A stretch of 32,000 bases of DNA from an uncultured delta proteobacterium (GTDB lineage: Bacteria; Myxococcota_A; Polyangia; Polyangiales; Polyangiaceae): contig CAWIUL010000012.1 in the NCBI GenBank assembly GCA_963839305.1, forward strand, positions 1-32,000, in the 5' to 3' direction. Both the position numbers and the translations under genes were made by a program. The notes under the pieces were generated by a model, which did not search any database, was not told the origin of the DNA, and saw only the letters and a program-made list of their open reading frames with translations. Of the stretch, positions 12,293-31,765 are shown in pieces (position 1 is the first letter of the stretch; every line of letters begins with the position of its first letter).

Positions 12293-12303
12293 ATACGTAA
12301 CGA

Positions 12304-12377: not shown

Positions 12378-12378
12378 A

Positions 12379-12453: not shown

Positions 12454-12472
12454 ACAAACTATTAAGAGCGAG

Positions 12473-12546: not shown

Positions 12547-12562
12547 GTGACGCGCTCCGAAG

Positions 12563-12637: not shown

Positions 12638-12638
12638 A

Positions 12639-12726
12639 TGGTGTCATCGGAGGGACTCGAACCCTCATACCCCGTTAGGGGCCTAGGTCCTCAGCCTAGT
12701 GTGTATACCAGTTCCACCACGATGAC
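12639..12726 (-). tRNA. tRNA-Leu (anticodon GAG), canonical class II
   Basis: Acceptor GTCATCG/CGATGAC, anticodon arm CTAGG-CTGAGGA-CCTAG, long variable arm CCCC-TAA-CGGGG, T arm GAGGG-TTCGAGT-CCCTC, A73 and encoded CCA. Confidence 0.85.
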
Positions 12727-12733
12727 GTGTCGG

Positions 12734-12806
12734 TGGGCAGATTCGGGATCGAACCGAATTCTCCGAGGCTTCAACTCGGCGCAATGACCACACTTGCTCT
12801 CTGCCC
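12734..12806 (-). tRNA. tRNA-Phe (anticodon GAA)
   Basis: Acceptor GGGCAGA/TCTGCCC, D arm GCAA-GTGTGGTCA-TTGC, anticodon arm CCGAG-TTGAAGC-CTCGG, T arm TTCGG-TTCGATC-CCGAA, A73. Confidence 0.85.
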
Positions 12807-12813
12807 ATGCCGG

Positions 12814-12887
12814 CGTTCCCACAGGGATTCGAACCCTGGTTTCCTGATCGAGAATCAGGCTTCCTTGGCCATCTAGAAGATGGGAAC
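12814..12887 (-). tRNA. tRNA-Glu (anticodon CTC)
   Basis: Acceptor GTTCCCA/TGGGAAC, D arm TTCT-AGATGGCCAA-GGAA, anticodon arm CCTGA-TTCTCGA-TCAGG, T arm CAGGG-TTCGAAT-CCCTG, G73. Confidence 0.85.
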
Positions 12888-12894
12888 AGTCGAG

Positions 12895-12967
12895 CGCGCC
12901 CTATGGGGTTCGAACCCATCTTGCCGGATTGAAAGTCCAGTATCCTGACCGCCTAGAAGAAGGGCGC
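12895..12967 (-). tRNA. tRNA-Glu (anticodon TTC)
   Basis: Acceptor GCGCCCT/AGGGCGC, anticodon arm CTGGA-CTTTCAA-TCCGG, T arm ATGGG-TTCGAAC-CCCAT, G73. Confidence 0.85.
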
Positions 12968-12973
12968 AGCGGG

Positions 12974-13044
12974 AGCTGGCGAGCGGAATCGAACCGCTCC
13001 CGCCGCTTTACGAAAACGGTGCTCCGCCTTGGAGCTACACCAGC
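12974..13044 (-). tRNA. tRNA-Thr (anticodon CGT)
   Basis: Acceptor GCTGGTG/CGCCAGC, D arm GCTC-CAAGGCG-GAGC, anticodon arm CCGTT-TTCGTAA-AGCGG, T arm AGCGG-TTCGATT-CCGCT, U73. Confidence 0.8.
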
Positions 13045-13048
13045 ATTG

Positions 13049-13120
13049 CTCACCGAGAGGGAATCGAACCCCCGATAGGGCGCTTAACAGACGCCTGCCT
13101 TACCACTTGGCTATCGGTGA
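13049..13120 (-). tRNA. tRNA-Asn (anticodon GTT)
   Basis: U1-A72 acceptor TCACCGA/TCGGTGA, anticodon arm GGCGT-CTGTTAA-GCGCC, T arm GGGGG-TTCGATT-CCCTC, G73. Confidence 0.85.
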
Positions 13121-13187
13121 ATACAAAACAGGAGAGGCATGCCCGCATCGACGCGCGCCACGTCCTGGCAAATTTTCAAAGAGCAAA

Positions 13188-13203
13188 GTGCTCGCGAGAG
13201 CAC
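13188..13203 (-). terminator. intrinsic-terminator-like hairpin inside the tRNA array
   Basis: On the minus strand, GTGCTC-TCGC-GAGCAC is followed by TTTGCTCTTTGAAAATTT. It sits in the 84-nt spacer directly after tRNA-Gln(CTG). Confidence 0.45.
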
Positions 13204-13204
13204 C

Positions 13205-13279
13205 TGGTTCGGGCTGAAGGACTCGAACCTTCATTCTCGGTTTCAGAAACCGGCGTCCTAGCCGTTGGACGAAGCCCGA
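13205..13279 (-). tRNA. tRNA-Gln (anticodon CTG)
   Basis: U1-A72 acceptor TCGGGCT/AGCCCGA, anticodon loop TTCTGAA (one stem mismatch), T arm GAAGG-TTCGAGT-CCTTC, A73 and encoded CCA. Confidence 0.8.
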
Positions 13280-13288
13280 AAGCGGCAG

Positions 13289-13359
13289 TGGGTCCGGAGG
13301 GAATCGGACCCTCGCCGAGTGCTTAAGAGGCACCTGCTCGACCTTCGAGCTACGGACCC
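13289..13359 (-). tRNA. tRNA-Lys (anticodon CTT), atypical T loop
   Basis: Acceptor GGGTCCG/CGGACCC, D arm GCTC-GAAGGTC-GAGC (identical to the Gly-GCC gene), anticodon arm GGTGC-CTCTTAA-GCACT, T arm GAGGG-TCCGATT-CCCTC (C at position 55), A73. Confidence 0.7.
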
Positions 13360-13369
13360 ATCGATGAAG

Positions 13370-13442
13370 TGGGACGTTCCGGGATCGAACCGGACTCCTG
13401 CCGCTTAAAAGACGGCTGCATCACCATTGTTGCTAACGTCCC
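13370..13442 (-). tRNA. tRNA-Lys (anticodon TTT)
   Basis: Acceptor GGGACGT/ACGTCCC, anticodon arm GCCGT-CTTTTAA-GCGGC, T arm TCCGG-TTCGATC-CCGGA, A73. Confidence 0.85.
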
Positions 13443-13505
13443 TCTTTCTTCCTCGCCCGTCTCTCACGGGCATGAGTTTGCGTTTCATGATTGCGTTCCT
13501 CGTCT

Positions 13506-13591
13506 TGGTGGGATGCGGTGGAGTCGAACCACTTGCCCGAAGGCCACCGGGTTACAGCCGGCTTGAGCTTCCACTGCTCAGAACGCACCCC
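13506..13591 (-). tRNA. tRNA-Tyr (anticodon GTA), class II
   Basis: Acceptor GGGGTGC/GCATCCC, anticodon arm GCCGG-CTGTAAC-CCGGT, long variable arm, T loop TTCGACT, A73 and encoded CCA. Confidence 0.8.
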
Positions 13592-13708
13592 GCTTCGCGT
13601 GGATGGTTTAAGCGTCGATATCGCTCTTGATGGTTTTGGTTGGTGCTCATCGAGTACACGTCTCCGTGCTCCCAATCGGGAGCGCGAAACTTCGAGCCCA
13701 GAAACGAC

Positions 13709-13741
13709 GAAGGCCGCTCTCGGTTTCCCGAGGCGGCCTTC
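13709..13741 (-). terminator. long GC hairpin with GAAA tetraloop (terminator-like)
   Basis: On the minus strand, GAAGGCCGCCTCGG-GAAA-CCGAG(A)GCGGCCTTC is followed by GTCGTTTCT. It lies between tRNA-His and the array. Confidence 0.4.
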
Positions 13742-13951
13742 CTCTGCGCGTGTTGCGCGTGATGGAAGAACCGCCTCTACGTACCGACCTCCTGATTGCG
13801 TGCGGCCGACTTCGGTTCGATGGAGGCGGGATAGCTGGGCGTAAGCGAGTCACGATCGCCGGACAAAATGCACGACGGCCCAGCAAGCTCTTTTTGCGAG
13901 CTCCGGGCTAGAGACGTGAATTTCGGCGTGGGACACATCATGGGAAAATCT

Positions 13952-14028
13952 TGGGGTGAGTGACGGGATTCGAACCCGTGAATACGTGAGCCACAGACAC
14001 GCGCCTTGACCACTTGGCTACACCCACC
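13952..14028 (-). tRNA. tRNA-His (anticodon GTG) with encoded G-1
   Basis: G-1 pairs with C73. Acceptor GTGGGTG/CACTCAC, D arm GCC-AAGTGGTCAA-GGC, anticodon loop CTGTGGC, T arm ACGGG-TTCGAAT-CCCGT, encoded CCA. Confidence 0.85.
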
Positions 14029-14185
14029 ATACGGAAGCTCGTCGCGAGTTCTCGTATGGAGAGGGCGCGTTGTGGTGCGCGTGAGAAACATGGGCTGAAG
14101 AGAACGACGAAGTGTCGCTGGAGTCCCTGACTCGTTCGCGTCACTTTTTCTTGCAGCGGAAACCGGGTGCTCTGGGAATCGCGAA

Positions 14186-14480
14186 CTACAAGTATTGCCA
14201 GCCGAAGCTTCCCGGAAGCCAGAGCCGCACCTCGCAGCTCCCCGGGGCCACGCCGCGGAAGCCGCACTCGCATTCGAGCTCGAATTCATCGACAAGTGAG
14301 GATGGGCGGCTCGCATTGAGCAGCAGCTCCACGAGTCGAGCGGTGCCTTCGTCGGTTCCGAAGCCGACGACAGTGTCGCGCGCTGCCCATTCAGACTCGC
14401 TCCCAATACTTTCGTCGGCGTTCGTAAGGAAAAAGCCCGGAAGGCCCCATGCGCCTCGCTCGGACGCGCGTACCCACGGA
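14186..14480 (-). pseudogene. C-terminal fragment of a hypothetical gene split by the IS3 element
   Basis: Reads ..PWVRASERGAWGLPGFFLTNADESIGSESEWAARDTVVGFGTDEGTARLVELLLNASRPSSLVDEFELECECGFRGVAPGSCEVRLWLPGSFGWQYL*. It joins in frame to the fragment right of the IS once the IS and one GGA copy are removed. Confidence 0.55.
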
Positions 14481-14507
14481 TCATCTTCCCCCCTGCTGAC
14501 GGACACC
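14481..14507. repeat. IS3-family left terminal inverted repeat
   Basis: See the mobile_element entry; roughly 22 of 27 positions match the right end. Confidence 0.7.
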
Positions 14508-14542
14508 TCGGATAGCGCGATACTGCGCGGGAGTGTTCGACG

Positions 14543-14854
14543 ATGGGACAAAAGAAGGAACTTAAGAAACGGCGCGCTCGGCGGACGTTCACGGCGGCGC
14601 AGAAGGCCGACGCGGTGCGGCTCGTGAAGAGCGGCAAGTCGGTCGCGCAGGTGGCGCGGGAGCTCGATCTGACGGCAACGTCGCTGCACGTGTGGGTACG
14701 GCGCGCGGAGGCGGATGCCGGCGAGCGTAGCGACGCGCTGACGACCCAGGAGCGCGAGGAGCTGTCGCGGCTGCGACGAGAGGTCAAGCACCTGCAGCGG
14801 GAACGCGACATCCTAAAAGCGGCGGCCACCTTCTTCGCGAAGGAGAGCGCGTGA
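14543..14854 (+). CDS. IS3-family transposase OrfA (HTH)
   Basis: MGQKKELKKRRARRTFTAAQKADAVRLVKSGKSVAQVARELDLTATSLHVWVRR... followed by a leucine-zipper-like ELSRLRREVKHLQRERDILKAAATFFAKE. Confidence 0.85.
   Translation: MGQKKELKKRRARRTFTAAQKADAVRLVKSGKSVAQVARELDLTATSLHVWVRRAEADAGERSDALTTQEREELSRLRREVKHLQRERDILKAAATFFAKESA
14815..14819 (+). promoter_or_regulatory. candidate -1 programmed frameshift site A-AAA-G for the OrfAB fusion
   Basis: orfA codons cta aaa gcg. orfB is in the -1 frame, and that frame is open from this point (PKSGGHLLREGERVKY...). Confidence 0.5.
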
Positions 14855-15723
14855 AGTACGCGTTCATCGATTCGCAGAAGGTGGCCTGGCCGGTCATGGC
14901 CATGTGCGAGGCGCTCGGCGTCTCCAAGAGCGGCTACTACGACTGGCTCGCCGAGCCCATCACCGAGCGTGAGCGTCGCGACGTCGCGCTCGCCTCCAAG
15001 GTCCGCGCCATCTTCGGAGACCATCGCGGCCGCTATGGGAGCCCTCGCGTCGCTGAGGAGCTGCGTGCCGACGGCGAGGTCGTCAACGAAAAGCGCGTCG
15101 CGCGCATCATGCGGGAAACCGGCCTCGTTGCGAGCCGCAGCAAGCGCTTCGTCGCCACGACCGACTCGGCCCACGCCGAGCCGATCGCGCCCAACCTGCT
15201 CGAGCGGAACTTCACCACAGACGCACGCAATCGCGTCTGGGTGACGGACGTGACGGCGATTTGGACGATGGCCGGCTGGTTGTATCTTGCAGCCATTCTC
15301 GACCTGTACTCGCGGCGAGTCGTGGGCTGGGCGACCAGCGATACCAACGACACCGCGCTCGCGCTCGACGCGCTCAGAGCAGCGTTGCGCGAGCGTCGCC
15401 CCGCGCCGGGGCTCGTCCACCACTCCGACCGCGGCAGCCCCTACGCGAGCGCCGCCTACCGTGCCGCGCTCTCGACCGCCGGCATCGTCGCGAGCATGAG
15501 CCGCAAAGGCGATTGCTGGGACAATGCCGTCGCCGAAAGCTTCAACGCTACCCTCAAGACCGAGGCCATCGACCACGTGCCCGCCGACCACGACGCCGGG
15601 ACGCGCCTCGTCGCCGCGTACATCGATGGCTACTACAACGTCCGGCGTAGGCACTCTTTCCTTGGTTACGAGACCCCGATCACGTTTGAATGGAAGCGGA
15701 CCATCACCGAGATGGCCGCGTGA
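14851..15723 (+). CDS. IS3-family transposase OrfB (DDE/RNase-H-like integrase core)
   Basis: 290 aa: ...GRYGSPRVAEELRADGEVVNEKRVARIMRETGLVA...RVWVTDVTAIWTMAGWLYLAAILDLYSRRVVGWA...VHHSDRGSPYAS..YRAAL...GIVASMSRKGDCWDNAVAESFNATLKTE. Confidence 0.9.
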   Translation: MKYAFIDSQKVAWPVMAMCEALGVSKSGYYDWLAEPITERERRDVALASKVRAIFGDHRGRYGSPRVAEELRADGEVVNEKRVARIMRETGLVASRSKRFVATTDSAHAEPIAPNLLERNFTTDARNRVWVTDVTAIWTMAGWLYLAAILDLYSRRVVGWATSDTNDTALALDALRAALRERRPAPGLVHHSDRGSPYASAAYRAALSTAGIVASMSRKGDCWDNAVAESFNATLKTEAIDHVPADHDAGTRLVAAYIDGYYNVRRRHSFLGYETPITFEWKRTITEMAA

Positions 15724-19288: not shown

Positions 19289-19873
19289 TCAGCCACCGTC
19301 GCCTTCGTCTCGTCGGGCAAACCCCACGTGCCGGCGTGAGTACGCGGGAAGACGCGCAGACACGAGGTCGATGGCCTCCTGCGCATTCGCCGCGCGATAC
19401 ACGCAGTCGTCCGGGATGTCCGGATAGCGCTCCCGATGATCGAGTCGTTGCCCTGCGAGCGTCTCGCTCCAACCCGGCGCCACGATCGCGACGATCAGGC
19501 GCCGGTACATCCACGCGAAGGCGATCTCCGAGAGCGTTCCGGCGCCGCCTCCCACGGCGACCATGGCGTCGCAATTGGCCACGAGAGAGTTCCGCGCGTG
19601 ATCGAGTCCGCTCGCGATGACGATGTCCGCCCACGCGTTGGCTTCTGCGGGATTCGGGTGTGGCAGGATCGCGAGCGTGTCCCCTTCGTGGTAGCGCGCG
19701 GACTCGTGCGCACCGCGTAATGCGGCCTCCATCACGCCACCAAGGCCGCCGGAGACGACGCGCATCCCCGCATCGACGGCGAGGCGTCCGAGGGTGCGTG
19801 CGTGTTCGTACGCGGGGTTGCCGTCGCTGACGCCAGCGTCACCCACCACAGCGAGCAGCGGTCTCCGCTTCAT
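19289..19873 (-). CDS. LOG / TIGR00725-like Rossmann-fold protein (lysine-decarboxylase-like family)
   Basis: VVGDAG....A..LGRLAVDAGMRVVSGGLGGVMEAALRGA...LAILP... and the LOG-type motif VAVGGGAGTLSEI. The ATG at 19873 overlaps the giant gene's TGA as ATGA, with GGAGG 7 nt upstream. An alternative ATG lies at 19894. Confidence 0.75.
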   Translation of the reverse strand: MKRRPLLAVVGDAGVSDGNPAYEHARTLGRLAVDAGMRVVSGGLGGVMEAALRGAHESARYHEGDTLAILPHPNPAEANAWADIVIASGLDHARNSLVANCDAMVAVGGGAGTLSEIAFAWMYRRLIVAIVAPGWSETLAGQRLDHRERYPDIPDDCVYRAANAQEAIDLVSARLPAYSRRHVGFARRDEGDGG

Positions 19874-22800
19874 TGGTCTACCTCCGGCATCCATTCGGCG
19901 TCATCGCAAGGAACTGCGCGTTGCATCGCCAGCATTCTCGGGACGTCGGGTACATCGTGCAGCGCGAAGCCGAGCCGCACTCCCATTCGGGACAGTGCGG
20001 CAGCGACACGCGCGTCCACGGCCCCGTCGGGATACGCGGCGGAGCACCCACTGCCTCCCATCCTGACCGTCCACTCGCGAGCCTGAGTGACGCATTCCGC
20101 GAACTCCCCATCATTGTAGAGCGTCCATCGAACGTGCTCCGTGCCATGCATGGCGATGCTCAGGTCTCCGGTCGCGACAAACTCTCGGAGCGTCCTTTCG
20201 TGCAGGTAAAGCGATCGCCGGAGCGCATCACCGTTGGCCGCCACGCGGTGGGCGGCCTCGAGCTGGTCGCGGACGGACGTTTGGAGGAAGGCCTCGCGCC
20301 AGTTTCGCATCTTCATCCGCTCCGAAGATTCTTCATCTGCATAGATCGCGTCGAGTGGAGCGAGGCTCGGCCACCCATCATCGAGTGCGGCGCGCACGAA
20401 GACCGTGCTCGGGATACCGAGCTTTTGCAGGATGGGCCACGCGTGTTCGGCGAAATCTCGGTAGCCATCATCGACCGTCACCAGGAGGGCGTTCTCCGGA
20501 AGAGCAACCTCGCCAGCCGCGGCGCGTTCGACATCGCCCAAATGAACGGGCACGTAACGCCGAACGAGCCGGCGAAGCTGCGCCTCGAAGGCGGCAGTGG
20601 ACACGACCATTCCCCGGTCGCGATAGACGCGCACAAGGCGGTTCGCGTGCGGGTCGGGGAGCACGCGGTGATAGCTCAGCGTCGTGAGCTTCAGAGCATT
20701 CGCCGCTCGTCGTCGCGGGTACGACGGCTTCGAAGTGAGCGATCGGATCACGCTTTCACGGGCGCTCCGTGCGGCGGCGTCTCTTGGGTCCGTCGGCTCG
20801 TGCAGATAGTTGGACTCGCGGATCCAGACCGGCCGTTTCGCCATCTCGATGATCGGCAGCATGAAGGCCCAGTCCGTCGCGCGCGCCCACCAAGACGCAC
20901 CATCTTGCAGATCGCTCGTCTCGATCCGGTCGAAGAGCGTTTTTCGGAACGTGCGCAGGTGTTGCCAGACCGCGCCGCCGCGCTTCGCACGTGGCGCTTC
21001 GAAGTCCACCGTGTAATTCGACTGCTTGTCCGTCCGGACCATCGACCCAACCGTCACGTCAGCGCCGCGCGCGTGCTCCTCCGCGACGCGCTCGAGCGCC
21101 TTCGTGCTCCCGAGCGCGTCGTCTAGGTCGACGAGGACAATCGCGGCTTCAGGTCTCGCGACGAGGTTCCGCACCGCGTGGTGCGTGTTCGCGAGCAGCC
21201 CTACGCGGCGCCTCCGCCGAACGAACGTCACGCGATCCCCAAAACGGACGCACTCACGCTTGAGGGTGTCATCCGAGCCATCGTCGGACGCGTCGTCGAT
21301 GACGATCGCCCCCCACGCCTGGAACGTTTGCGCGGCGAGGGAGTCCAGACAGCGTCGAATGCGCCCGGCGCCCACGTTGCGACCGCAGACGACGAGCACC
21401 ATGGACTCGTCGCGACCGCGCTGCAAAGATCGCGGCGAGCCGAGAACTTGCGCGGCGCGGGGACGGCCGACGTCGCGACCGTCGCGTTCGATCTCGTCGA
21501 TGAGCAGAAGAAGATCGTCGGCCTTCGACTTTCGCGCGTTGTCGGGGTGTGCGAACCAATGGGCGCGCGACCCGAGTCGTAGAGAGGTCCCCTTTCCAAA
21601 CGCCACGGCTCGGTCCAAGGAACGGTGCCACGGCAGCTGAAAGCGTCCATCACGCACCTCGTTCGCCAAAGGCCGGAGCCCTTGAGCGCGCGCCTTGTGG
21701 ATCCATCCGCAAATTGCCTCGACGCGGAAGGGACCCCGCTCGTCGCCATCGCGAACACGCGGAGCGTCGCCTGGCACTGGCAGCGCGAGCGTGAGCGCGT
21801 CCGGTCGTGCATCGAACGCGTCGATGGCTTCGCGAACGAAGTCGGCGACGGGATCGGGCCGCCCGACAAGCGTGTCGACATCCGCGTGAAGGACGAAATC
21901 TCCGGTGCACGCGTCGAGCGCCGAAAGGAACGCGACGAGCGCTTGGCCATTGGCTGCGTGTGTGGTGCCGCAGTCCGTGCCGAACCAGCGCTCCGCGACC
22001 TTGGCGATTTCGTGTTCGGCGGTAGGGGCCTCGACGACGCGGTCAACGATGCCGCGCCGTCGGAGGCGATCGAGCGCGGCGCGCGCACCGGGAAGATCGG
22101 CATGCGAGTGCTCACGCACGAACCCGGTCAGCGACGGGTCGAGCGCGACGATCACTTCGTCGAAGGCGCGTGGACGGGCCAATTGGTGGACGAGGTGCTC
22201 AACCTGAGCCTCGAGGGTCTCGGCGTCCATCGGACACGCTTTGATCACGAGTGATGTGCGCGCCTCGATCCGCGCGAGGGGTCGGAGCTCGAAAAGACGG
22301 AACTCGGGCACGCGCTCGAACCGATGGAGGTCCGTGCCGTCGACAATCGATTCTAGTGCGACGGCGAAACCTGCCGTAGCGAAGGCGCGTCGATACGCGT
22401 CGAGCGGGCGATGGACCTCGGTGCGAAGGTCTCCTGATGCCTCGCTGCGCTTCGTGTAGGACGAGATTGAAAGATATGCGTTCTCCTCTGGGTCGACGCG
22501 CGTCTGCGATGTAGTGCGCTCGACCCGACAACTTGTGGGGTCGCACACGGCGACGAGAACGCGACCGGTTTCTCGAACGACGTGCCGCATGCGCGCGAGG
22601 GCATCGCGCATCCCGCCGTCCTCGAGGGTGCAAAGCACGAGAGAGCATGTGATTGCGTCGAATGGCGCGCGTTCGAGGACGCGCCCGATGCAGCGTTCGT
22701 CGACGAAGACCCCGGGAGCTGCGGCCTCCCATCGCGCTCCCAAGCGCTCGTCCGGGTCGAACGCGAGAAGGCCGCGGACGCGCCGCTGGCCTCGCGGTTT

Positions 22801-25731
22801 CCCGCAGCCGTAGTCGAGCCAACTGGTCGCGCCGTGACGTTCGACCCACGCCAGAACGGCTTCATCAAGGACCTGTTTTGGATGCGGGCTTCGCAGCGCG
22901 TCGAGGAGGGCGCGCCAGCCCGTGAGCTCCGTGAAATCCTCTTCATCGACCGAGCGATGAAGGAGCTCGTTCAGGTCCGATCGGAACCAGAAGCGCCAGG
23001 ACAGGAACGCGCGCCGCACCATGCGCTCTTCGCCAACGGGGGTCGCCGGCTCGAGAGAGTGACCGAGATCGACGAGCTGAAGACCTCGCGCCGTGCGGCG
23101 AAGGTTCTTCGGGTGAATGTTCGTATGGACGAGACCGAGCGCGAGGAGCTCGCGAAGTAGCTCGTACATGCCGGGTCCATAGCTGCCTTCGAAGGGAGCA
23201 CTCTCGACGTACTCGCACTCGAGCACGAGGCCGTGCTGCGTCTCGTGAACCGCGACAACGTGCGGCAAGGACGAAGTCTCCTTGCCGACGAGGCGCCGGA
23301 GATGCGGCGTCGCACAGGTCACGGCGTCGCGGTCCAGCCCATCGAACACCTTCAACGTCCGATGCTCGCAGCGAAGAACGACTCCCTCCGCGCCCATGCC
23401 CAACATCTCATCGGCGGCGAAGCCAAGGTCGGCACCGATGGCCGCTGCGCGCGTTCTTCTGGCTTCCGCGAGCCAGCGCGCAGGCGCTTGGAATGTCGCC
23501 GTCGCCAGGTTCTGGCGATCACGCAGGAACGTCGCGATGTCCATTTCATCGATGCCACTCGAAACTGCGACCTCGATCGCGTCGGTTCGCGCTCGCGAGA
23601 AGCGTGCGTCGACGGCGTCGACGAGCTCGGCAACCTCCGTCCCGAGGGTGCTCGTCCACCAAGGGCTCGTGTCGAGCAATCGTCGGATGATCTGCACGAG
23701 GCCACGTGTGCGCCACCACGCGAGCCGCGCGGCGGCGAGTCGCTCGGTGACGTACTTGCGCGTGAGGTGCAGCAGCCGGTCGAGCTCCCCTTCGTCGAGG
23801 AGGGCGCCCTTGTTGCGAACGAGCATCTCGTACGCGCGAAAAAAACCGTAGCCCAGAATGTCGTCGACGAGTCTGCGCGAATCGTCCTGATCCTCCGGCT
23901 CTGAGGAGCGATCGTGCGAGAGCGCGAGCGGAATGGCCACGACGCGGCGGCCGTGAACGTGCGCGGCGTCTGCAGCCCAGAGCATGTCCGAGCGGCGTAT
24001 CGGGCGCTCGCCGACACGCGGCGACATGTTCGAGGCGGTCCGCAGAAGATCGAGATCGAAGACGAACGTGTTGCCTCCGCGAAGACACGACGGCCTCGCG
24101 CCCGCCACCACGTCCCCTGAAACACTCGGGAGCTCACGCGTGACGAGCTCGCCAGCGAGGATTCGCCGAAGCCTCCCTCGAAGATGCGCGACCGCCGTCC
24201 CCCAGGTAGCGTCCTGCGGAGCGGGCGAAAACGGCGTTTCGAGACGGTCAGTCTCCGACCTCGCGAGGTCGTAGTAGAAGTCGCGACGCGCTCGGCGCCA
24301 CCGATGATTGCGCACGAAGGGATCATCGGTCGCGTCGGTTGGCGAGTGCGTGGCGGCCGCATGGAGAAAGTGCGCGAGGTCAACGAGCTGGACCCGAATC
24401 GTGGAGGAGCTCGGAACCGGGGCCGCACCCGTGTTGCCGCCAAGCGCGACGGCGAAGCCGGCCTGTTTCGCGCGTGCGATTTGGGTGACGAAATGGTCGA
24501 GCACACGAGAATCCGTGGGTAGCCGATGGTCGTCGTCGACGATCCAAGCGACCGCTCCGGGTAAGCGAGAAGCGACCTCGCGGACGCAAGACTGAAGCAG
24601 CGTCCGGGCGACGGCGATACTCTTCGTGTCGGTTAGATCGGTTGGCAGGAGCGCGTGCTCTCGCGCGAGCTCGCGCTGCGCATCGAGGCCAACCGGCCAC
24701 GCGCGCAGTCCGAGGCGGGAGGCTGCGGTCACGACACCGTCGAAACCTCGCCGCGATCCGTTCTCCAACAGGACGACGTCCAACGACCGAACCCCAGCGG
24801 ATGCGCCCAGTCGCGCGAGCCCGTCGAGGAGCGGCAGCGCTCGATCGGGCCGCGCCCCATCGATGATCGTGCCCACCACAAGCGTCACTGAGCTCGCCAC
24901 GGGATTCGTCGGTGCCTCTTCCCTCACCGTCGAGGCGGGGAGAGCGAGCGGTGCTGGACTCCACCCGAAGAAGTCGCGCGCACGGTCGAGAAACGTGCGC
25001 TCGACGGCAGCGGTCATTCCCGGGCGCCATTTCGCGTAGAAGATCTCGAGACCGGCATGCTTCGCCGGATTCTCAGGGTCCGACAGGCGAGACCCTCCGT
25101 GAAGCGTGTCGTGGTGAGCTCGGGCTTCGGTGAGCGCGTGGTATCGCGCCCCAAGCTCGGCGAGCCGCGCGCACAGATCGCGGTCCGTGCAGCTCGGGAG
25201 CGCCTCATCGAACATACCTGCGCGAAGAAGCACGGAGAGCGTGGCGCTCAGATTCGATCCCTGGACGCCCGGGTTGCCTCGCAAGAAGTCCTCGACGAGG
25301 AGCGATGCCGGCGGAGCTTGCAGGCGGCCATCCGGCGTCTCGCTGTCATGCCGGACTAGCGTGGCGGCCAGTACCTCGACGTCCGTCGCCGCAATGGCGG
25401 CGCGTACGCTCGCAAGATACCCGCGCGCCCAATGGTCATCGTCATCAAGGAACGAGACCCACGACGCATCGGGTTCCTCGCTCCGCGCGAGGTGATCGAG
25501 AGCCGTATTCAACGCACCGCTCAACCCCGGGGTTCGTCGGTTCGTCAGGAGTTCGATTTGCCCCGCACGCGGTCTCGTCGGGTCGAGGTCGGGCTTGGCC
25601 GCGCCGTCGACCACGACGATGACGCGATCCGAATCGCTGACTTGATCGAGAACAGAATCGAGCGCGCGTGTGAGAAGGGCGGGACGACGGCCGGTGGTCG
25701 CGACGACCACGGAATGGCGGTGTGTTTTCAT
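19870..25731 (-). CDS. giant multi-domain protein: GT2, GT-A-like, kinase-like, SAM methyltransferase, GT-A-like, GT2 and NodB polysaccharide deacetylase domains
   Basis: Uninterrupted ORF; ATG at 25731 (MKTHRHSVVVATTG), alternative GTG at 25794. Domains, in ORF-track numbering from 25794: aa 27-230 GT2 (FLDDDD); aa 303-480 GT-A-like (WIVDDDH); aa 795-925 kinase-like (LVHTNIHPKNL, LVDLG). Then aa 985-1150 MTase (WLDYGCGKP); aa 1182-1345 GT-like (HADVD); aa 1465-1660 GT2 (VIDDASDDGS, VDLDD); aa 1700-1950 NodB (VTVDDGYRD, HGTEH). Confidence 0.8.
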   Translation of the reverse strand: MKTHRHSVVVATTGRRPALLTRALDSVLDQVSDSDRVIVVVDGAAKPDLDPTRPRAGQIELLTNRRTPGLSGALNTALDHLARSEEPDASWVSFLDDDDHWARGYLASVRAAIAATDVEVLAATLVRHDSETPDGRLQAPPASLLVEDFLRGNPGVQGSNLSATLSVLLRAGMFDEALPSCTDRDLCARLAELGARYHALTEARAHHDTLHGGSRLSDPENPAKHAGLEIFYAKWRPGMTAAVERTFLDRARDFFGWSPAPLALPASTVREEAPTNPVASSVTLVVGTIIDGARPDRALPLLDGLARLGASAGVRSLDVVLLENGSRRGFDGVVTAASRLGLRAWPVGLDAQRELAREHALLPTDLTDTKSIAVARTLLQSCVREVASRLPGAVAWIVDDDHRLPTDSRVLDHFVTQIARAKQAGFAVALGGNTGAAPVPSSSTIRVQLVDLAHFLHAAATHSPTDATDDPFVRNHRWRRARRDFYYDLARSETDRLETPFSPAPQDATWGTAVAHLRGRLRRILAGELVTRELPSVSGDVVAGARPSCLRGGNTFVFDLDLLRTASNMSPRVGERPIRRSDMLWAADAAHVHGRRVVAIPLALSHDRSSEPEDQDDSRRLVDDILGYGFFRAYEMLVRNKGALLDEGELDRLLHLTRKYVTERLAAARLAWWRTRGLVQIIRRLLDTSPWWTSTLGTEVAELVDAVDARFSRARTDAIEVAVSSGIDEMDIATFLRDRQNLATATFQAPARWLAEARRTRAAAIGADLGFAADEMLGMGAEGVVLRCEHRTLKVFDGLDRDAVTCATPHLRRLVGKETSSLPHVVAVHETQHGLVLECEYVESAPFEGSYGPGMYELLRELLALGLVHTNIHPKNLRRTARGLQLVDLGHSLEPATPVGEERMVRRAFLSWRFWFRSDLNELLHRSVDEEDFTELTGWRALLDALRSPHPKQVLDEAVLAWVERHGATSWLDYGCGKPRGQRRVRGLLAFDPDERLGARWEAAAPGVFVDERCIGRVLERAPFDAITCSLVLCTLEDGGMRDALARMRHVVRETGRVLVAVCDPTSCRVERTTSQTRVDPEENAYLSISSYTKRSEASGDLRTEVHRPLDAYRRAFATAGFAVALESIVDGTDLHRFERVPEFRLFELRPLARIEARTSLVIKACPMDAETLEAQVEHLVHQLARPRAFDEVIVALDPSLTGFVREHSHADLPGARAALDRLRRRGIVDRVVEAPTAEHEIAKVAERWFGTDCGTTHAANGQALVAFLSALDACTGDFVLHADVDTLVGRPDPVADFVREAIDAFDARPDALTLALPVPGDAPRVRDGDERGPFRVEAICGWIHKARAQGLRPLANEVRDGRFQLPWHRSLDRAVAFGKGTSLRLGSRAHWFAHPDNARKSKADDLLLLIDEIERDGRDVGRPRAAQVLGSPRSLQRGRDESMVLVVCGRNVGAGRIRRCLDSLAAQTFQAWGAIVIDDASDDGSDDTLKRECVRFGDRVTFVRRRRRVGLLANTHHAVRNLVARPEAAIVLVDLDDALGSTKALERVAEEHARGADVTVGSMVRTDKQSNYTVDFEAPRAKRGGAVWQHLRTFRKTLFDRIETSDLQDGASWWARATDWAFMLPIIEMAKRPVWIRESNYLHEPTDPRDAAARSARESVIRSLTSKPSYPRRRAANALKLTTLSYHRVLPDPHANRLVRVYRDRGMVVSTAAFEAQLRRLVRRYVPVHLGDVERAAAGEVALPENALLVTVDDGYRDFAEHAWPILQKLGIPSTVFVRAALDDGWPSLAPLDAIYADEESSERMKMRNWREAFLQTSVRDQLEAAHRVAANGDALRRSLYLHERTLREFVATGDLSIAMHGTEHVRWTLYNDGEFAECVTQAREWTVRMGGSGCSAAYPDGAVDARVAAALSRMGVRLGFALHDVPDVPRMLAMQRAVPCDDAEWMPEVDQ

Positions 25732-26086
25732 GAGACCCCAGATGCGAGAGGGCGCCTCAGGAAATCGATTCGATGGTGGTTCCCGAGGGTCCACGCAGAT
25801 CGGGAAGGATGTTCCGAACGACCAAGGTGCTGAAATTCACGGGACCGGAGCACTCCGGACTTTGGCGCATCGCCATCCCATGACCATTTGAACGGGCATC
25901 CCCACGCGATCGGCGTGAGCCCTCTTCTTCTAGCGCTGGCGAGGTGAAGCGCAAGGACCACGAGCTCGGCGCCGCAGCCGATGCAGTCGTTCACCGAGCT
26001 CGACGACTCTCTTTGGCGCGCGCGGGTTCGTCTTGCCGATCGCGAGCCGTACGTGATCGCTTGACAGCGGCCGCGCGACGCTCGCG

Positions 26087-26323: not shown

Positions 26324-26523
26324 CGGCCGGCGGCCTCCTGTTCTTGACGTGCGGTTCGGAGCAGCACCATCACGCACCACGCCGAGATCGTGACGCCGGT
26401 GTGGTCTGCGGCGGCCTTTATTAGGCGGTGCTGCTCCTCGGTTAAGCGCACGCGGAGGAAAACCGAGCGTCGTTCGTCCGGGGGTTTGCGCCATGGTTTT
26501 CGCTGTTTGCGCGCGCTTGCCAT
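26320..26523 (-). CDS. ribbon-helix-helix (CopG/MobC-like) DNA-binding protein
   Basis: MASARKQRKPWRKPPDERRSVFLRVRLTEEQHRLIKAAADHTGVTISAWCVMVLLRTARQEQ has a strand-helix-helix pattern. It is divergent from DUF2130-A. Confidence 0.6.
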   Translation of the reverse strand: MASARKQRKPWRKPPDERRSVFLRVRLTEEQHRLIKAAADHTGVTISAWCVMVLLRTARQEQEAAGR

Positions 26524-26573
26524 GGCCGACTGTACCACACCAGTCCACGAACCGTTCACGATGGGTTGCGCAG

Positions 26574-26602
26574 TGTGCACGTTTGGGGTACAAACGTACG
26601 TG
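26574..26602. promoter_or_regulatory. imperfect palindrome (candidate operator) in the RHH / DUF2130-A divergent intergenic region
   Basis: GCACGTTTG-gggta-CAAACGTACGTGC. The core 7-bp arms ACGTTTG/CAAACGT lie at 26578-26596. Confidence 0.35.
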
Positions 26603-26642
26603 CGGCCCATCGGAAGGAATCAAGGTAGTCACATGAATCAGA

Positions 26643-27871
26643 GCAACAAACAGAACGGTCTCAACGGGAAATCCCACACGTCTCTCAGCTGTCCGGCATG
26701 CGGATCTCTCATCGCTCCCGAGGTGTACGAGCGCATCCTCCGCATCGACGAAGCGCGCCAGAAGGCGCTCGCCGAGGAGCGCGCGTCGCTCGACGCCGAG
26801 CGTGAGGCCCTCGAGAGCGAGCACGACTCCCTCCACAAGGAGCGCAAGGCGATCGCCGACGCGGCCGTCGAGGCAGCGCGCGCGAAGTGGGACACCGACA
26901 AGGCGCGCATCGTGAAGGAGATCGCGCGCCTCGAGCAGAAGGCGAAGAAGGAGCGGCAGCAGGTCGAGCGCGCGCGCGACAAGGATCGCAAGACGCTCGA
27001 GCGCCAGCTCGCCAGCGAGCGGACGAAGATGCGCGAGGCCGCCGACGCGCGCATTCGCGAAGCGGCGCGCAAGGCCGCGAACGAGCAGGAGGACGAGGTC
27101 GCGGACATGAAGGCGCAGCTCAAGACGTCGGAGCAGCGCCGCACGCGCGAGGAGGCGGGCTACAAGAAGGTCATCGGGGAGCTCCAGCGCAAGGTCGAAG
27201 CGCGCGACCGGCAGCACCTCGGTCCCGAGGGTGAACAGGAGCTCGTGGAGGACCTTCGTAAGGAGTTCCCGGGCGACCGCGTCGAGCACCACGGCAAGGG
27301 CGGGGATGTCGTCCAGGTGGTGATGGACGAGGGCGCGGTCGTCGGCAAGATCGTCTACGAAGCGAAGAACCGCACGTCGTGGTCCGCCGACTACGTGAAG
27401 CAGACGCAGCTCGCCATGGAGGAGCACGACACGCCGTATGGCATTCTCGTGAGCCGCGTCCTCCCGTCGCCGAAGACCGGCATGTGCATCATGCGCGGCG
27501 TGATCGTCGTCGCGCCCCTCATCGCCGCGCAGGTCGCGAAGGTCGTGCGCGAAAGCATGATCGCCATCCATCGCCTCAAGCTTTCGAACACGGACAAGGG
27601 CGCGAAGACGGCCGCGCTCTTCGAGTACCTCCGCGGGCAGGACTTCGCGACCGCGATGAAGCGCGTGTCGACGAAGCTCGGCGAGCTTCACACGAGCCTC
27701 TCTCGCGAGAAGTCGATGCACAACGGCTGGTGGCGAGATCGCGAGCAGCACTACGCCGCCATCGCGCGCGAGACGGCCGCCATCGACGGACGCGTCAAGG
27801 ATCTCCTCGGCGGTCGCGAGCTCGCGAAGACGAAGGGTCCGAGCCGCCGCCTCGACGTGGTGTCGGCGTAA
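26643..27871 (+). CDS. DUF2130-like protein A: N-terminal CxxC, coiled coil, C-terminal PD-(D/E)xK-like nuclease core
   Basis: MNQSNKQ...SLSCPACGSLI, then ~170 aa of charged heptad-like sequence, then FPGDRVEHHGKGGDVVQVVMDEGAVVGKIVYEAKNRTSWSADYVKQTQLAMEEHDTPYGILVSRVLP (D...E-x-K). An RBS-like aggaatcaagg lies upstream. Family assignment is from memory of the DUF2130 architecture. Confidence 0.65.
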
Positions 27872-28558: not shown

Positions 28559-29626
28559 TCAGCGCTGGCGCGCTCGTCGAGCCGCAACTTTCGTTGGAGC
28601 AGCGGCGCCCTCACGGCGGCGAGCCTTCTTGACGCCGAGTGCTGGTGGACGAGCGTATACTTCGTGTAGTGCCAAGGCGCGAAGCGTGATCTCGTCCCGC
28701 AAGGTCGAGGGCGAGACCACCTCCGCCTCTTCCCCAAACCCGAGGATCCACGCGACCAACTCGGGGCACACGCTCACGCGCATCCTCACGAGGACGTGGT
28801 CGTCGTGAACTTCGACGTTCTGTGAATCGTGCCAGCGATGCGACGTTGCGTAAGTCGCCCATTGCTTGTGAAGCTTCAAGACGACGTCCTGAACCGACTT
28901 GTCGAGGAAGATGCCGAACGAATCGCGAAAGACTTGCTCCGGGTCGTATGCGGCGCGGTCGGGATAGGTGAACGTGTCGTCGAGCACGTTGACCGTGCGA
29001 ATGCGCGCGAACCGATACGGGTGAAGGGCGTGTTTGGGGTCGCGCCCGACGATGTAGAGCTGGTGGTCATGGAGCGCGAGGGACAGCGGCTCGATGCGCA
29101 TGCAGGCGGATGTTCCGCCGAAGTTCGTGTAGTCGAGTGCGAGGACGCGGTGATGAAGAACGGCTTCGAGAACTTCGTCGAGGAGCTCTGCCCGATCGAC
29201 TAACGCGACTTCGCCGCCGCGACGAAGGAACCAGAACTTGCGATCGATGTCGCGGAACACAGCACGCCGCTTCGTTCGGCCGATGACGTCCTTCGCTGCG
29301 TCGCGAATGCCGGCGCCGTACGTCGTCCCCTCGAACAGATGCCAGAGGCTGGAACCAAAGCACGCGGCGACTGCCGTCGGGTACGACGGAGCGGCCGCAA
29401 ACGCGGTCGGGTCGATGCGAATCTTTCGTTGCTTGCCCTCGTGAAACTCGGACACGCCGGGCAAATGCTCGAGCGCGGCGTTCATGAGTCGGTCGGCTTG
29501 CGCTGGGCGAATGTGCAAGCGCTCGGCGAGCGAATGGCGGTCGTGCTCGCGCCCCCGCAAGAGATCGGCGACGAGTGTGAAATGGCGCGTGATGCTCTTG
29601 GAGCGATGAGCTTCGCTCTTCGTCAT
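28559..29626 (-). CDS. WYL-domain transcriptional regulator (HTH-WYL-WCX architecture)
   Basis: N-terminal HTH-like ITRHFTLVADLLRGREHDRHSLAERLHIRPAQADRLMNAL. WYL core HHRVLALDYTNFGG...EPLSLALHDHQLYIVGRDPKHALHPYRFARIRTV. C-terminal ...VCPELVAWILGFGEEAEVVSPSTLRDEI. Start taken at MTKSEAH (29626); the ORF-track start is 29680. Confidence 0.75.
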   Translation of the reverse strand: MTKSEAHRSKSITRHFTLVADLLRGREHDRHSLAERLHIRPAQADRLMNAALEHLPGVSEFHEGKQRKIRIDPTAFAAAPSYPTAVAACFGSSLWHLFEGTTYGAGIRDAAKDVIGRTKRRAVFRDIDRKFWFLRRGGEVALVDRAELLDEVLEAVLHHRVLALDYTNFGGTSACMRIEPLSLALHDHQLYIVGRDPKHALHPYRFARIRTVNVLDDTFTYPDRAAYDPEQVFRDSFGIFLDKSVQDVVLKLHKQWATYATSHRWHDSQNVEVHDDHVLVRMRVSVCPELVAWILGFGEEAEVVSPSTLRDEITLRALALHEVYARPPALGVKKARRREGAAAPTKVAARRARQR

Positions 29627-29633
29627 CCATCCA

Positions 29634-29647
29634 GGATCGGATGATCC
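29634..29647. promoter_or_regulatory. palindrome GGATC-ggat-GATCC just upstream of the WYL start (candidate operator)
   Basis: Lies 8 nt upstream of the WYL ATG, in the 96-bp region shared with DUF2130-B. A further GGATC lies at 29652-29656. Confidence 0.3.
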
Positions 29648-29722
29648 GCACAGGATCACAACTTCGAAAACCGCGAGCATCGGGCCATCGGTGGCCGCAC
29701 CCTAGTAAGCACAGAGGGACCG

Positions 29723-31765
29723 ATGGATTACACGAGCAACGTTCGCTGTCCGAAGTGCCTGCACGAGTTCGAGCTAGAAGCCGTCATGCGCAACGCCATG
29801 GAGGCCGACGTCCGAGCTTCGATGGCGCAGGAGTTCGAGAAGCAGGCGCTCGCAAACAAGGCTGACGCGGATGCGCGCATCAAGCAGAAAGATGACGAGC
29901 TTGCCGAAGCGCGGAGCAAGGTTGCCGCAATCGCGACGACGGAGGCGACGCTGTTGAAGCAGCAGCGCCAGCTCGCCGAGCGAGAGCAGACGATGGACCT
30001 TGTGTTCGAGAAACGTGTCGCGGAAGAAACGACTCGGATTCGCGAGCACGAGACGAAGGTGGCGCACGAGAAGGCCGCCAAGGAAGCCGACGAGCGGGTG
30101 CGCAGCGCAACCGAGGAACTGTCGGAAGCGCGCGCCAAGCTCGCCGCCGCGACGACGCGTGAAGCCGACGTTCTGAAGAAGCAACGCGAGCTCGCAGAGA
30201 AAGAGCGACGACTCGAAGTCGACCTCGAGCAGCGATTGGCCGCCGAGAGGCAACGTATCCGCGAGGAGGAGGCGAAGGCCGCGGCGGACAAATGCACGCG
30301 TGAGGTCGCGAGCCAATTGCGCACGAAGCAAGAAGAGCTCGATGACGCGAACGCGCGGCTCGCCGAGGCCACGTCGCGCGAGGCGGACGTTCTGAAGCAG
30401 CAACGCGAGGTCGCAGAAAAGCAAGCGCGGCTCGATCTCGACTTCGAGCGCCGCATTGCCGAGGAAACGAACCGGATTCGGGAGCAGGAGGCGAAGGCGG
30501 CGACGGAGCGCTGCACGCGCGACGCTCAAGAGCAGGTGCGGACGAAGCAAGAGGAACTCGACACTGCGAACAAGAAGCTCACGGAGGCGTCGTCGAGAGA
30601 GGTCGAGCTGCTGAAGAGGCAACGCGAGCTCTCCGACCGCGAACGGGCGTTCGAAGTGGAAAAAGAGCGCGCGATCGCGGAGGCGTCGTCGCACGCGCGT
30701 CAAGACGAGGCGATGCTCGCGAAGGAGAGGGCGACTCTTCAGCAAGAGCAACAACGGCTACGTGACGAAGAGCACCGTCAACAAATCGGCGGTCTCGAAA
30801 AAACGATCTCCGAGCTGACGCGACAAGTTCAGCAAGGCTCGATGCAGCTTCAGGGTGAAGCGCAGGAGGTCGTGCTTCGCGACGTGCTCGCGAGCGCGTT
30901 TCCGATTGACCAGTTTGATGACGTGCCCACCGGCGTTCCGGGGGCCGACGTTCTGCAGCGTGTTCGCGCGGCCGACGGCAGCGACTGCGGTGTCATCGTG
31001 TGGGAGAGCAAGCGAACGAAGAACTGGTCCGACGCATGGTTGCCCAAGGTGCGCGACGATCAGCGGGAGGCGGGCGCTTCGATTGCGGTGATCGTCACCC
31101 AAGCGCTCCCGGCCGACATTCGGCACTTCAGTGTGAAGGATGGCGTCTGGGTGTGCGCTCCGGCCTTTGCGCATCCGCTCGGTATTGCCTTGCGCAAGGC
31201 GCTCGTTGATGTCGCCGCTACGAAGCGAGCCGCCGAGGGAAGTGGTCAGAAGATGCACATCCTCTACGAGTATCTGATCGGCCCAGAGTTTCGGAACCGT
31301 GTCGAGGGTGTGCTCGAGGCCTTCGTCGACATGCGCGAAGACCTCGACGGCGAGAAACGCGCGCTCTTGGCACGATGGAAGAAGCGCGAGCGGCAAATCA
31401 ATCGAGCGCTCACGAACGTGACGGCGTTCTATGGCGATCTTCAAGGCATCGCTGGTCGACAACTACGTGACCTGCCTCAACTCACGCTCGATGCTGCACC
31501 TTCACCAGCCTTGCCGCCGTCGAGCAGCGTGCCCGTCGATGACGAAGGCCTGAAGGATCTCCTCATGCGCCTTTTGCCCGACGACGGGGCGGGAGTCGGC
31601 AACGCGACGTTGATGGATCGATTCCTCGACCAAGCGCTCGTCGAGCTTGGTGCGGAGCTGCGGCCGGAAGACTACGAGCGCTGCAAGGAGATGCTCCTCG
31701 ACGAAGGACGCGCGCGACGAGGCAAGGGTAAGGGGGGCTCCGTTTGCCGCGTCATCGCAGCTTGA
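29723..31765 (+). CDS. DUF2130-like protein B (680 aa) with expanded coiled coil and extra C-terminal domain
   Basis: MDYTSNVRCPKCLHEF, four 73-aa coiled-coil repeats, then the nuclease-like core FPIDQFDDVPTGVPGADVLQRVRAADGSDCGVIVWESKRTKNWSDAWLPKVRDDQREAGASIAVIVTQALP (D409...E428-S-K430). A ~90-aa C-terminal extension is absent from copy A. Confidence 0.7.
   Translation: MDYTSNVRCPKCLHEFELEAVMRNAMEADVRASMAQEFEKQALANKADADARIKQKDDELAEARSKVAAIATTEATLLKQQRQLAEREQTMDLVFEKRVAEETTRIREHETKVAHEKAAKEADERVRSATEELSEARAKLAAATTREADVLKKQRELAEKERRLEVDLEQRLAAERQRIREEEAKAAADKCTREVASQLRTKQEELDDANARLAEATSREADVLKQQREVAEKQARLDLDFERRIAEETNRIREQEAKAATERCTRDAQEQVRTKQEELDTANKKLTEASSREVELLKRQRELSDRERAFEVEKERAIAEASSHARQDEAMLAKERATLQQEQQRLRDEEHRQQIGGLEKTISELTRQVQQGSMQLQGEAQEVVLRDVLASAFPIDQFDDVPTGVPGADVLQRVRAADGSDCGVIVWESKRTKNWSDAWLPKVRDDQREAGASIAVIVTQALPADIRHFSVKDGVWVCAPAFAHPLGIALRKALVDVAATKRAAEGSGQKMHILYEYLIGPEFRNRVEGVLEAFVDMREDLDGEKRALLARWKKRERQINRALTNVTAFYGDLQGIAGRQLRDLPQLTLDAAPSPALPPSSSVPVDDEGLKDLLMRLLPDDGAGVGNATLMDRFLDQALVELGAELRPEDYERCKEMLLDEGRARRGKGKGGSVCRVIAA
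29897..30772 (+). repeat. four tandem in-frame 219-bp (73-aa) repeats inside DUF2130-B
   Basis: Units start at ELAEARSKV (29897), ELSEARAKL (30116), ELDDANARL (30335) and ELDTANKKL (30554). Units 2 and 3 share long near-identical DNA stretches (gacgttctgaagaagcaacgcgagctcgcagagaaaga vs gacgttctgaagcagcaacgcgaggtcgcagaaaagca). Confidence 0.8.

Follow-up and report, generated by a model that had tools for sequence, protein, structure and literature searches.

A giant protein of glycosyltransferase-like, kinase-like, methyltransferase and deacetylase domains, and its SLOG-family partner, in an uncultured member of the Polyangiaceae

The DNA analysed here (the window) comprises the first 32,000 nucleotides of contig CAWIUL010000012.1, from an uncultured delta proteobacterium of the Polyangiaceae (assembly GCA_963839305.1). 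Its minus strand carries one very long gene, the product of which we call the giant protein, followed directly by a small gene for a LOG-like protein with a SLOG domain, the partner. The giant protein is confirmed to consist of four domains of the GT-A glycosyltransferase fold, a protein-kinase-like domain, a class-I S-adenosylmethionine (SAM)-dependent methyltransferase, and a CE4/NodB-type deacetylase. A preliminary description, made from the letters of the window, had proposed an intact single polypeptide of ~1950 amino acids at 19870-25794 without stating the strand, which is minus; that polypeptide is indeed there. The description also called such a chain unusual. This stands insofar as the combination, together with a LOG-like partner, matches no described system that we found, each module being a known enzyme class; it does not stand insofar as the protein is no one-off, but a member of a conserved family with modular variants.

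The giant gene and its domains

The frame is free of stops across 1,974 codons when read from the first GTG (25794), whereas a start at ATG 25731 gives 1,953 amino acids. The ATG is the likely start because the homologue alignments begin there, the database copy (P0001) has 1,953 amino acids, and tGGGGt precedes it. Residue numbers below are counted from GTG 25794. No record was returned when the window protein was looked up by its exact sequence. A random codon at 65% G+C is a stop with a probability of ~2.5%, so that 1,974 open codons would arise with p ~1e-22 by our own arithmetic. The G+C content of the three codon positions (0.73/0.50/0.75) is even over all ten 200-codon blocks, and we therefore read the gene as a single coding frame over its whole length.

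A homology search of 5.8 billion proteins yielded 236 homologues, of which 120 were listed and serve as our conservation set. Most of these 120 align over 84-99% of the query at 34-49% identity, the closest homologue other than the protein itself being 49% identical. The DxD motifs, the kinase Lys, Asn, and Asp, and the methyltransferase GxGxG are invariant in 112-120 of the 120. Selection on the gene had been suggested on the ground of its length; invariant residues in each domain, across 26-120 homologues, now argue that all modules are under purifying selection.

Pfam and NCBIfam searches were complemented in two ways. For regions without a Pfam family, family alignments were built from homologue sub-sequences and their profiles searched against the PDB; domains 2 and 5 were, in addition, modelled with AlphaFold2 and the models compared by Foldseek. 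Together these support the proposed inventory and order (Pfam finds GT2 twice and the CE4 domain, AlphaFold2 and Foldseek find two further GT-A folds, and the profiles find the kinase-like domain and the methyltransferase), and the assignments that seemed most in need of a domain scan, namely the kinase-like, methyltransferase, and additional glycosyltransferase segments, were upheld. The motifs quoted in the preliminary description all occur in the translation, in the order claimed: FLDDDD (115-120), WIVDDDH (417-423), LVHTNIHPKNL...LVDLG (888-911), LDYGCG (993-998), HADVD (1303-1307), VIDDASDDGS (from 1498), VDLDD (1555-1559), VTVDDGYRD (from 1772), and HGTEH (1883-1887). Coordinates of all features are collected in Table 1.

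Domains 1 and 6 are the two stretches matched by PF00535 (108.2 bits in total, against a cut-off of 23.3), and NCBIfam recognises a PglI/GlfT1-like stretch at residues 28-152. In domain 1, the DxD residues D117-D120 together with D204 and D206 are kept in 119-120 of the 120 homologues, and a SCTDRD motif is invariant; domain 6 has the motifs IDDAS, D1556-x-D1558-D1559, and RGGNVWQHLR, with residues that are invariant among the homologues. Domain 2 gave no credible match in Pfam, in NCBIfam, or, with its family profile, in the PDB. Its AlphaFold2 model (predicted local distance difference test score, pLDDT, 85.3; predicted template-modelling score, pTM, 0.85) is clearly a GT-A fold, for which Foldseek returns from the PDB AvpGT (E 1e-6), COLGALT1, K4CP, and GlfT2 with probability 1.0; in its motif W417-x2-D420-D421-D422 the three Asp are kept in 119-120 of the 120. 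In light of this model, PDB-profile matches of domain 2 to PDE4 phosphodiesterases (E ~0.004 over 60 residues) were rejected as spurious. Domain 5, for which Pfam, NCBIfam, and the PDB profile likewise gave no match, was modelled with pLDDT 90.8 and pTM 0.91; COLGALT1 (E 3e-7), BcsA, glycogenin, and sugar nucleotidyltransferases are its structural relatives in the PDB (probability 1.0), and D1305-x-D1307 is kept in all 112 homologues that carry the domain. Against viral structures, Foldseek gave generic GT-A matches only.

The family profile of the kinase-like domain retrieves more than 1,200 protein kinase sequences from the PDB, the best at E 3e-7 (CK2, TTK, and ROCK). In the hidden Markov model alignment to CK2, K815 aligns with the Lys of VAIK, N897 with the Asn that binds Mg, and D909 with the Asp of DFG/DWG; these three residues, the LGxGxEGV G-loop, and D909-x-G911 are conserved in 120/120 homologues. 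On the catalytic Asp of the HRD motif (Asp156 of CK2), however, falls Asn892, and this position is Asn in every one of the 120. The domain thus retains the ligands for ATP and Mg but not the usual catalytic base. The earlier claim of a kinase-like fold is borne out; that the protein can phosphorylate is doubtful and unsafe to infer, because the invariant Asn replaces the catalytic Asp. Judged by these residues, a regulatory, scaffolding, or non-canonical glycan-kinase role is more likely than that of a standard kinase. Atypical glycan kinases, such as POMK, do exist.

As for the methyltransferase, the copy in the window stays below the Pfam cut-offs (E 0.07, 14 bits), so that on this copy alone the assignment would not stand, whereas the family profile (962-1176) finds class-I SAM methyltransferases in the PDB at E 2e-13 and PF13489/13649/08241/08242 are recorded for most homologues. 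Its motif I, LDYGCG (D994-x-G996-x-G998), and D1013 vary little or not at all. The CE4 domain scores 37 bits with PF01522 (cut-off 23.1) and holds an NCBIfam stretch for the PgaB N-terminus (7e-14). Among the 38 homologues with a CE4 domain, the metal ligands D1775 and D1776 (motif 1) and H1883 and H1887 (motif 2, H-x3-H) are at least 90% conserved, whereas a candidate for the catalytic-acid His of motif 5, in ALHD (~residue 1946), is conserved below 90%. The preliminary description saw no transmembrane segments, and there are none by 19-residue Kyte-Doolittle windows, the mean of which peaks at 1.41.

It is important to ask whether so long a frame might be an artefact, with several genes joined by misassembly or a frameshift, or else a pseudogene in decay, as the fragmented genes at 105-6827 would invite one to think and as the preliminary description itself allowed for an assembly fusion. 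We leave this next to no probability and regard it as refuted. Most of the 120 listed homologues (from the 236) span 84-99% of the query and keep its domain order, in independent genomes and metagenomes; more than 100 are full-length, at 34-49% identity and from Myxococcota to Thaumarchaeota, which excludes a fusion made in assembly. The coding signature is uniform along the gene, and the catalytic motifs are invariant.

Table 1. Positions of the giant gene, its domains, its partner, and other features of the window
Feature	Position	Strand	Residues	Basis or remark
Giant multi-enzyme coding sequence	19870..25731 (likely), to 25794 from upstream GTG	minus		complete; stop TGA 19872-19870
Domain 1, GT2 glycosyltransferase	24919..25731	minus	22-292	Pfam PF00535
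Domain 2, divergent GT-A fold, no Pfam family	23875..24909	minus	296-640	AlphaFold2 and Foldseek
Linker	23440..23874	minus	641-785	conserved KY..ERLAA.RLS..R..GL motif
Domain 3, protein-kinase-like	22891..23439	minus	786-968	profile against PDB
Domain 4, class-I SAM-dependent methyltransferase	22267..22890	minus	969-1176	profile against PDB
Domain 5, second Pfam-less GT-A fold	21427..22266	minus	1177-1456	AlphaFold2 and Foldseek
Domain 6, classical GT2	20719..21426	minus	1457-1692	PF00535, best stretch 1471-1632, E 5.5e-31
Domain 7, CE4/NodB-type deacetylase, PgaB-like	19873..20718	minus	1693-1974	PF01522
Partner gene, LOG-like SLOG cluster-4 / TIGR00725	19289..19873	minus		194 amino acids; PF18306
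Fragments of transporter genes	105-6827	minus		RND pump (ACR_tran 73-291 of 1021), outer-membrane efflux protein, P-type ATPase
Hsp20/alpha-crystallin gene	7121-7699	minus		intact
HNH endonuclease open reading frame	10920-11402	minus
Low-G+C stretch	11001-14000			G+C 0.585-0.59 (0.64-0.72 elsewhere in the window)
IS3-type transposase	14851-15723	plus		rve, HTH_21
DUF2130 gene	26390-27871	plus		paralogue of the second DUF2130 gene
WYL-WCX regulator	28559-29680	minus		divergent
DUF2130 gene	29723-31765	plus		paralogue of the first DUF2130 gene

The partner gene

The partner matches PF18306 at E 1.9e-26 (92.9 bits, against a cut-off of 26.3), and its homologues are called TIGR00725 by their data sources. 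Its nearest relatives in the PDB are the MoCo carrier protein, TT1465, and the LOG phosphoribohydrolases; with the Pfam LOG family (PF03641) it scores 20.6 bits, under the cut-off of 27. Two motifs are invariant among the partners: GGGAGTLSE, which is of the LOG type GGxGTxxE, and a C-terminal GWS...LD.R.RY that is peculiar to them.

The two genes, 6.4 kb together, overlap by ATGA, the partner's ATG (19873-19871) sharing bases with the TGA of the giant gene. A GGAGG Shine-Dalgarno sequence (19885-19881) lies 8 nt upstream of that ATG, inside the 3' end of the giant gene; this is the classic layout of translationally coupled genes. A SLOG gene is found directly downstream of the giant gene at 21 of the 28 methyltransferase-containing loci and at all 3 further ones (24/31), and many of the partner's closest homologues share contigs with giant-protein homologues. 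In two metagenome-assembled genomes the two proteins are even a single chain, of which the SLOG domain forms the C-terminal end (L018 201-5522, Phocaeicola dorei; L020 5995-11403, Bacillales), and in both a UDP-glucose-dehydrogenase-family gene comes next. The idea that the giant protein could assemble and tailor a small glycan without partner enzymes is thus wrong, given the ATGA coupling, the conserved adjacency, and the fusions.

The family and its genomic neighbourhoods

When a profile was run over a set with one genome for each species, 353 loci were confirmed. The bacterial hosts are Myxococcota, Alpha- and Gammaproteobacteria, Opitutaceae, Planctomycetota, Dehalococcoidia, Clostridia, Bacillales, Bacteroidota, Campylobacter, and Treponema; the archaeal carriers belong to two lineages, Nitrososphaerales and Methanosarcina. 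Among 1.84 billion representatives, the diagnostic domain 2 accounts for 548 clusters (50% identity). By these counts the family is rare but widespread, and its sporadic phyletic distribution points to horizontal transfer. In databases its members are labelled just "glycosyltransferase."

Several forms can be told apart. A core of ~1,700 amino acids comprises domains 1-6, and to this may be added a C-terminal CE4 domain (38/120), a His-phosphatase, or a SLOG domain. A form of ~1,150 amino acids ends after the methyltransferase, and another, of ~1,100 amino acids and found in marine Gammaproteobacteria, has the kinase-like domain between GT2 and the second GT-A domain. In yet another, domains 1, 5, and 6 lie next to a radical-SAM gene.

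Together with the genes for a GTP cyclohydrolase II-NADAR fusion, an AsnB-like amidotransferase, and an arylamine N-acetyltransferase, that of the short gammaproteobacterial form makes up a four-gene operon. This operon, with the order GT2, kinase-like, GT-A, was seen in L083, L027, L033-L040, and L043, the first of these (8803-15325) lying between tra conjugation genes on a 244 kb plasmid of Pseudoalteromonas donghaensis. Two unrelated partner types, both from nucleotide N-glycosidase-type families, therefore accompany the family: LOG-like proteins go with the long forms, and NADAR with the short. Searched by tblastn, phage genomes gave no match and plasmids two partial matches, on large plasmids. 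One homologue (L030), 29% identical and accompanied by a SLOG gene, comes from a contig that was binned as Escherichia coli; a megablast of this copy against 5,426 complete E. coli genomes in RefSeq found nothing similar, so that the contig may have been assigned to the wrong bin, or the element may be exceedingly rare.

The two-gene module is located in variable regions, and the neighbours of the giant gene are informative as well. Genes of the UDP-glucose/GDP-mannose dehydrogenase family are adjacent at 6 loci, NAD-epimerase/dehydratase genes are present at 8, and phosphatases recur, either as a His-phosphatase (fused or adjacent) or as a PHP domain. No transporter (ABC transporters included), flippase, initiating or polyprenyl-phosphate transferase, or polymerase recurs near ~30 loci in bacteria and archaea. 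The preliminary description had seen no export, flippase, or polymerase neighbours in the window, and this holds both there and at the homologous loci.

In the window itself, many ordinary genes had been described as broken, and fragments of an RND pump, an outer-membrane efflux protein, and a P-type ATPase are indeed what is found at its beginning. Their coding signal is poor and they look frameshifted or decaying, unlike the intact 5.9-kb giant gene; the intact Hsp20/alpha-crystallin gene lies between them and the low-G+C stretch. Flanked by the HNH endonuclease and the IS3-type transposase, that stretch is part of a segment (10920-15723) that is probably acquired DNA. Beside the giant gene, on its other side, the two DUF2130 paralogues and the divergent WYL-WCX regulator between them could be an uncharacterised regulated module.

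Possible functions

Our favoured reading, which we hold to be evenly poised between right and wrong, is that the giant protein and its SLOG partner form a self-contained, soluble, cytoplasmic two-gene module for tailoring a glycoconjugate on a nucleotide-derived acceptor. Its observed basis is the domain content, the conserved active-site-like motifs, the coupling and co-inheritance of the partner, and the absence of a membrane or export component. The SLOG partner would generate or hold the acceptor, probably something of nucleotide origin (a free base, ribose-5-phosphate, or a bound nucleotide); to this, several sugars would be added in succession from nucleotide sugars by the GT-A domains, all four of which have an intact DxD. 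The SAM methyltransferase would next methylate the product and, in the sub-family that has it, the PgaB-like CE4 domain would strip N-acetyl groups from residues of the N-acetylglucosamine type. The kinase-like domain would bind ATP, as a regulator or scaffold or as an atypical kinase. As the product we envisage an oligosaccharide or glycoside, tailored and retained in the cytoplasm; the module would be an accessory unit, moving horizontally and perhaps involved in conflict or defence. A nucleotide-derived acceptor is proposed mainly because LOG-like and NADAR partners, though unrelated, accompany two forms of the family; the adjacent dehydrogenase and epimerase genes and the phosphatases we count towards a supply of sugar nucleotides and the handling of phospho-intermediates.

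Several points weigh against this reading. The acceptor is inferred from gene neighbourhood alone, a SLOG gene is missing within 6 kb at 7 of the 28 methyltransferase-containing loci, and SLOG proteins can be ligand sensors instead of enzymes. CE4 enzymes of the PgaB type normally work on polymers outside the cytoplasm, four glycosyltransferase domains could equally fit a polymerase of long polysaccharides, and the kinase-like domain may be active despite its Asn. Finally, we found no published account of this family or of its SLOG pairing, and no biochemical datum for any member.

Two other readings deserve careful weighing, of which one overlaps the biochemistry of the cytoplasmic module. 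The pair might be a two-gene anti-phage or conflict system, with the SLOG protein sensing or processing a nucleotide signal and the giant enzyme as effector; we consider this rather unlikely. The effector might, with a similarly low probability, glycosylate and further modify a target, be it nucleotides, nucleic acid, or a protein of phage or host; or it might drain nucleotide-sugar pools. Just as tentative is a new class of island-borne immune system in which a nucleotide-derived molecule, or else nucleic acid or protein, undergoes multi-step glycosylation and methylation, so as to make, for example, an antiviral glycosylated nucleobase or nucleoside, or to tag invading material. We ran PADLOC (PADLOC-DB 2.0) on 138 neighbouring open reading frames from 26 loci and also scanned 40 neighbours singly. 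The PADLOC hits among these frames were very strong. Defence genes lie within 6 kb at no fewer than 7 of the 26 loci, a raw count that comes with no background rate: the BREX components BrxL (L005) and BrxD with BrxHI (L010), PglZ (L015), a type I-U Cas (L007), HmaA of Hachiman (L011), a dCTP-deaminase-type defence gene (L013), and a type II restriction endonuclease (L030), with further hits, unassigned to a locus, to a type IIG restriction-modification system, a type I methyltransferase, PDC-S02/S05/S23, and Mrr-type restriction endonucleases. Other loci have an nSTAND NTPase, a recombinase with a PIN domain, or a transposase with an SNase, and the window holds the WYL-WCX regulator, the two DUF2130 genes, the HNH endonuclease, the IS3 transposase, and the G+C dip. 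The sporadic distribution and the nucleotide-handling partners fit as well; a passage in PMC6459960, citing Burroughs 2015, describes SLOG domains as typical of nucleotide-centred conflict systems. Yet no PADLOC family matches the giant protein, the partner gives weak domain-level hits only (PsyrA, ShosA), and 31 of the 40 singly scanned neighbours have no defence hit. Several loci lie amid housekeeping genes, such as those for nitrate reductase and methionine synthase, the neighbouring sugar-nucleotide enzymes look biosynthetic rather than immune, and tblastn found no copies in phages and only the two partial ones on plasmids. The association with defence islands is, in our view, suggestive and not established.

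The remaining alternative, which we rate as distinctly improbable, is a peripheral-membrane polymerase-terminator of an envelope polysaccharide (capsule, O-antigen, or exopolysaccharide), like WbdA/WbdD, WbbB, or the multi-enzyme capsule polymerases, with the lipid-carrier and export genes located elsewhere. Several glycosyltransferases, a kinase-like and methyltransferase pair, and a putatively helical spacer recall the terminator WbdD (PMC3482155) and the modular O-polysaccharide enzymes (PMC11231755), the structural matches include the two-domain polymerases K4CP and GlfT2, and the pairing of GT2 with CE4 resembles PgaC/PgaB. Near ~30 loci, however, an ABC transporter, Wzx/Wzy, an initiating phosphoglycosyltransferase, and OPX are absent, and the hosts (archaea, Dehalococcoidia, Firmicutes, and Bacteroidota) have unrelated envelopes. 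The partner conserved beside the giant protein is cytosolic and binds nucleotides. The giant protein itself shows no membrane segment, its kinase-like domain lacks the catalytic Asp, and its methyltransferase profile does not single out WbdD.

Comparison with known systems shows a resemblance at the level of modules and logic. WbdD of E. coli O9a is a kinase-methyltransferase that terminates O-antigen chains (PMC3482155), and WbbB and Klebsiella O4/O7 offer modular, ABC-transporter-dependent O-antigen enzymes (PMC11231755). Shared with these are a eukaryotic-like kinase beside a SAM methyltransferase, a putatively helical spacer, and glycosyltransferase modules, either on that chain itself or on the chain of a partner. 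The giant protein differs from WbdD in its reversed order (kinase, then methyltransferase), its Asn for the catalytic Asp, its lack of a transmembrane or amphipathic anchor and of a transporter or lipid-carrier context, and its SLOG partner; nor was WbdD among the best PDB matches of the methyltransferase family profile. Of the multi-domain polymerases for capsules and cell walls, the chondroitin polymerase K4CP and GlfT2, which rank among the top structural hits for domain 2, likewise carry GT-A domains in tandem on a single chain, soluble or peripheral. That likeness is at the level of the fold only (template-modelling score ~0.4, 10-15% identity), and the giant protein has four GT-A domains plus the kinase-like, methyltransferase, and CE4 domains, and no capsule-locus context. 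H. influenzae Bcs3, another such polymerase, also joins transferase and phosphatase modules.

PgaC/PgaB and IcaA/IcaB, which synthesise and de-N-acetylate poly-beta-1,6-N-acetylglucosamine, share the sequence of a GT2 and then a PgaB-like CE4 domain with D, H, and H ligands; PgaC, however, is an integral membrane protein and PgaB periplasmic, whereas in the giant protein both functions would be fused and cytoplasmic, and the CE4 domain is optional (38/120). With LOG (cytokinin riboside 5'-monophosphate phosphoribohydrolase), the MoCo carrier protein, and TIGR00725 proteins, the partner shares the Rossmannoid SLOG fold and GGxGTxxE; unlike LOG, it falls under the PF03641 threshold, belongs to the uncharacterised cluster 4, and has a C-terminal motif of its own. 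A lead is offered by BlsM/BlsD and MilB/MilC (CMP hydrolase and cytosylglucuronate synthase) from the pathways of peptidyl-nucleoside antibiotics, in which an N-glycosidase frees the base and a GT-A enzyme glycosylates it from UDP-glucuronate. The logic would be similar, UDP-glucose-dehydrogenase-family genes are adjacent at 6 loci, and the top structural match of domain 2 is the nucleoside glycosyltransferase AvpGT with Ara-A bound. Here too there are differences, as our partner comes from a different fold family and no antibiotic-cluster context was seen; the likeness we see is one of logic.

The giant protein supplies two GT-A lineages without a curated family, namely domains 2 and 5. Should the association with defence islands prove real, the pair would give the first example of immunity based on a glycan assembly line. 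And if our favoured reading of a cytoplasmic module is true, the family would represent a route to a tailored glycoconjugate that is independent of a lipid carrier, takes place in the cytoplasm, and is common to bacteria and archaea.

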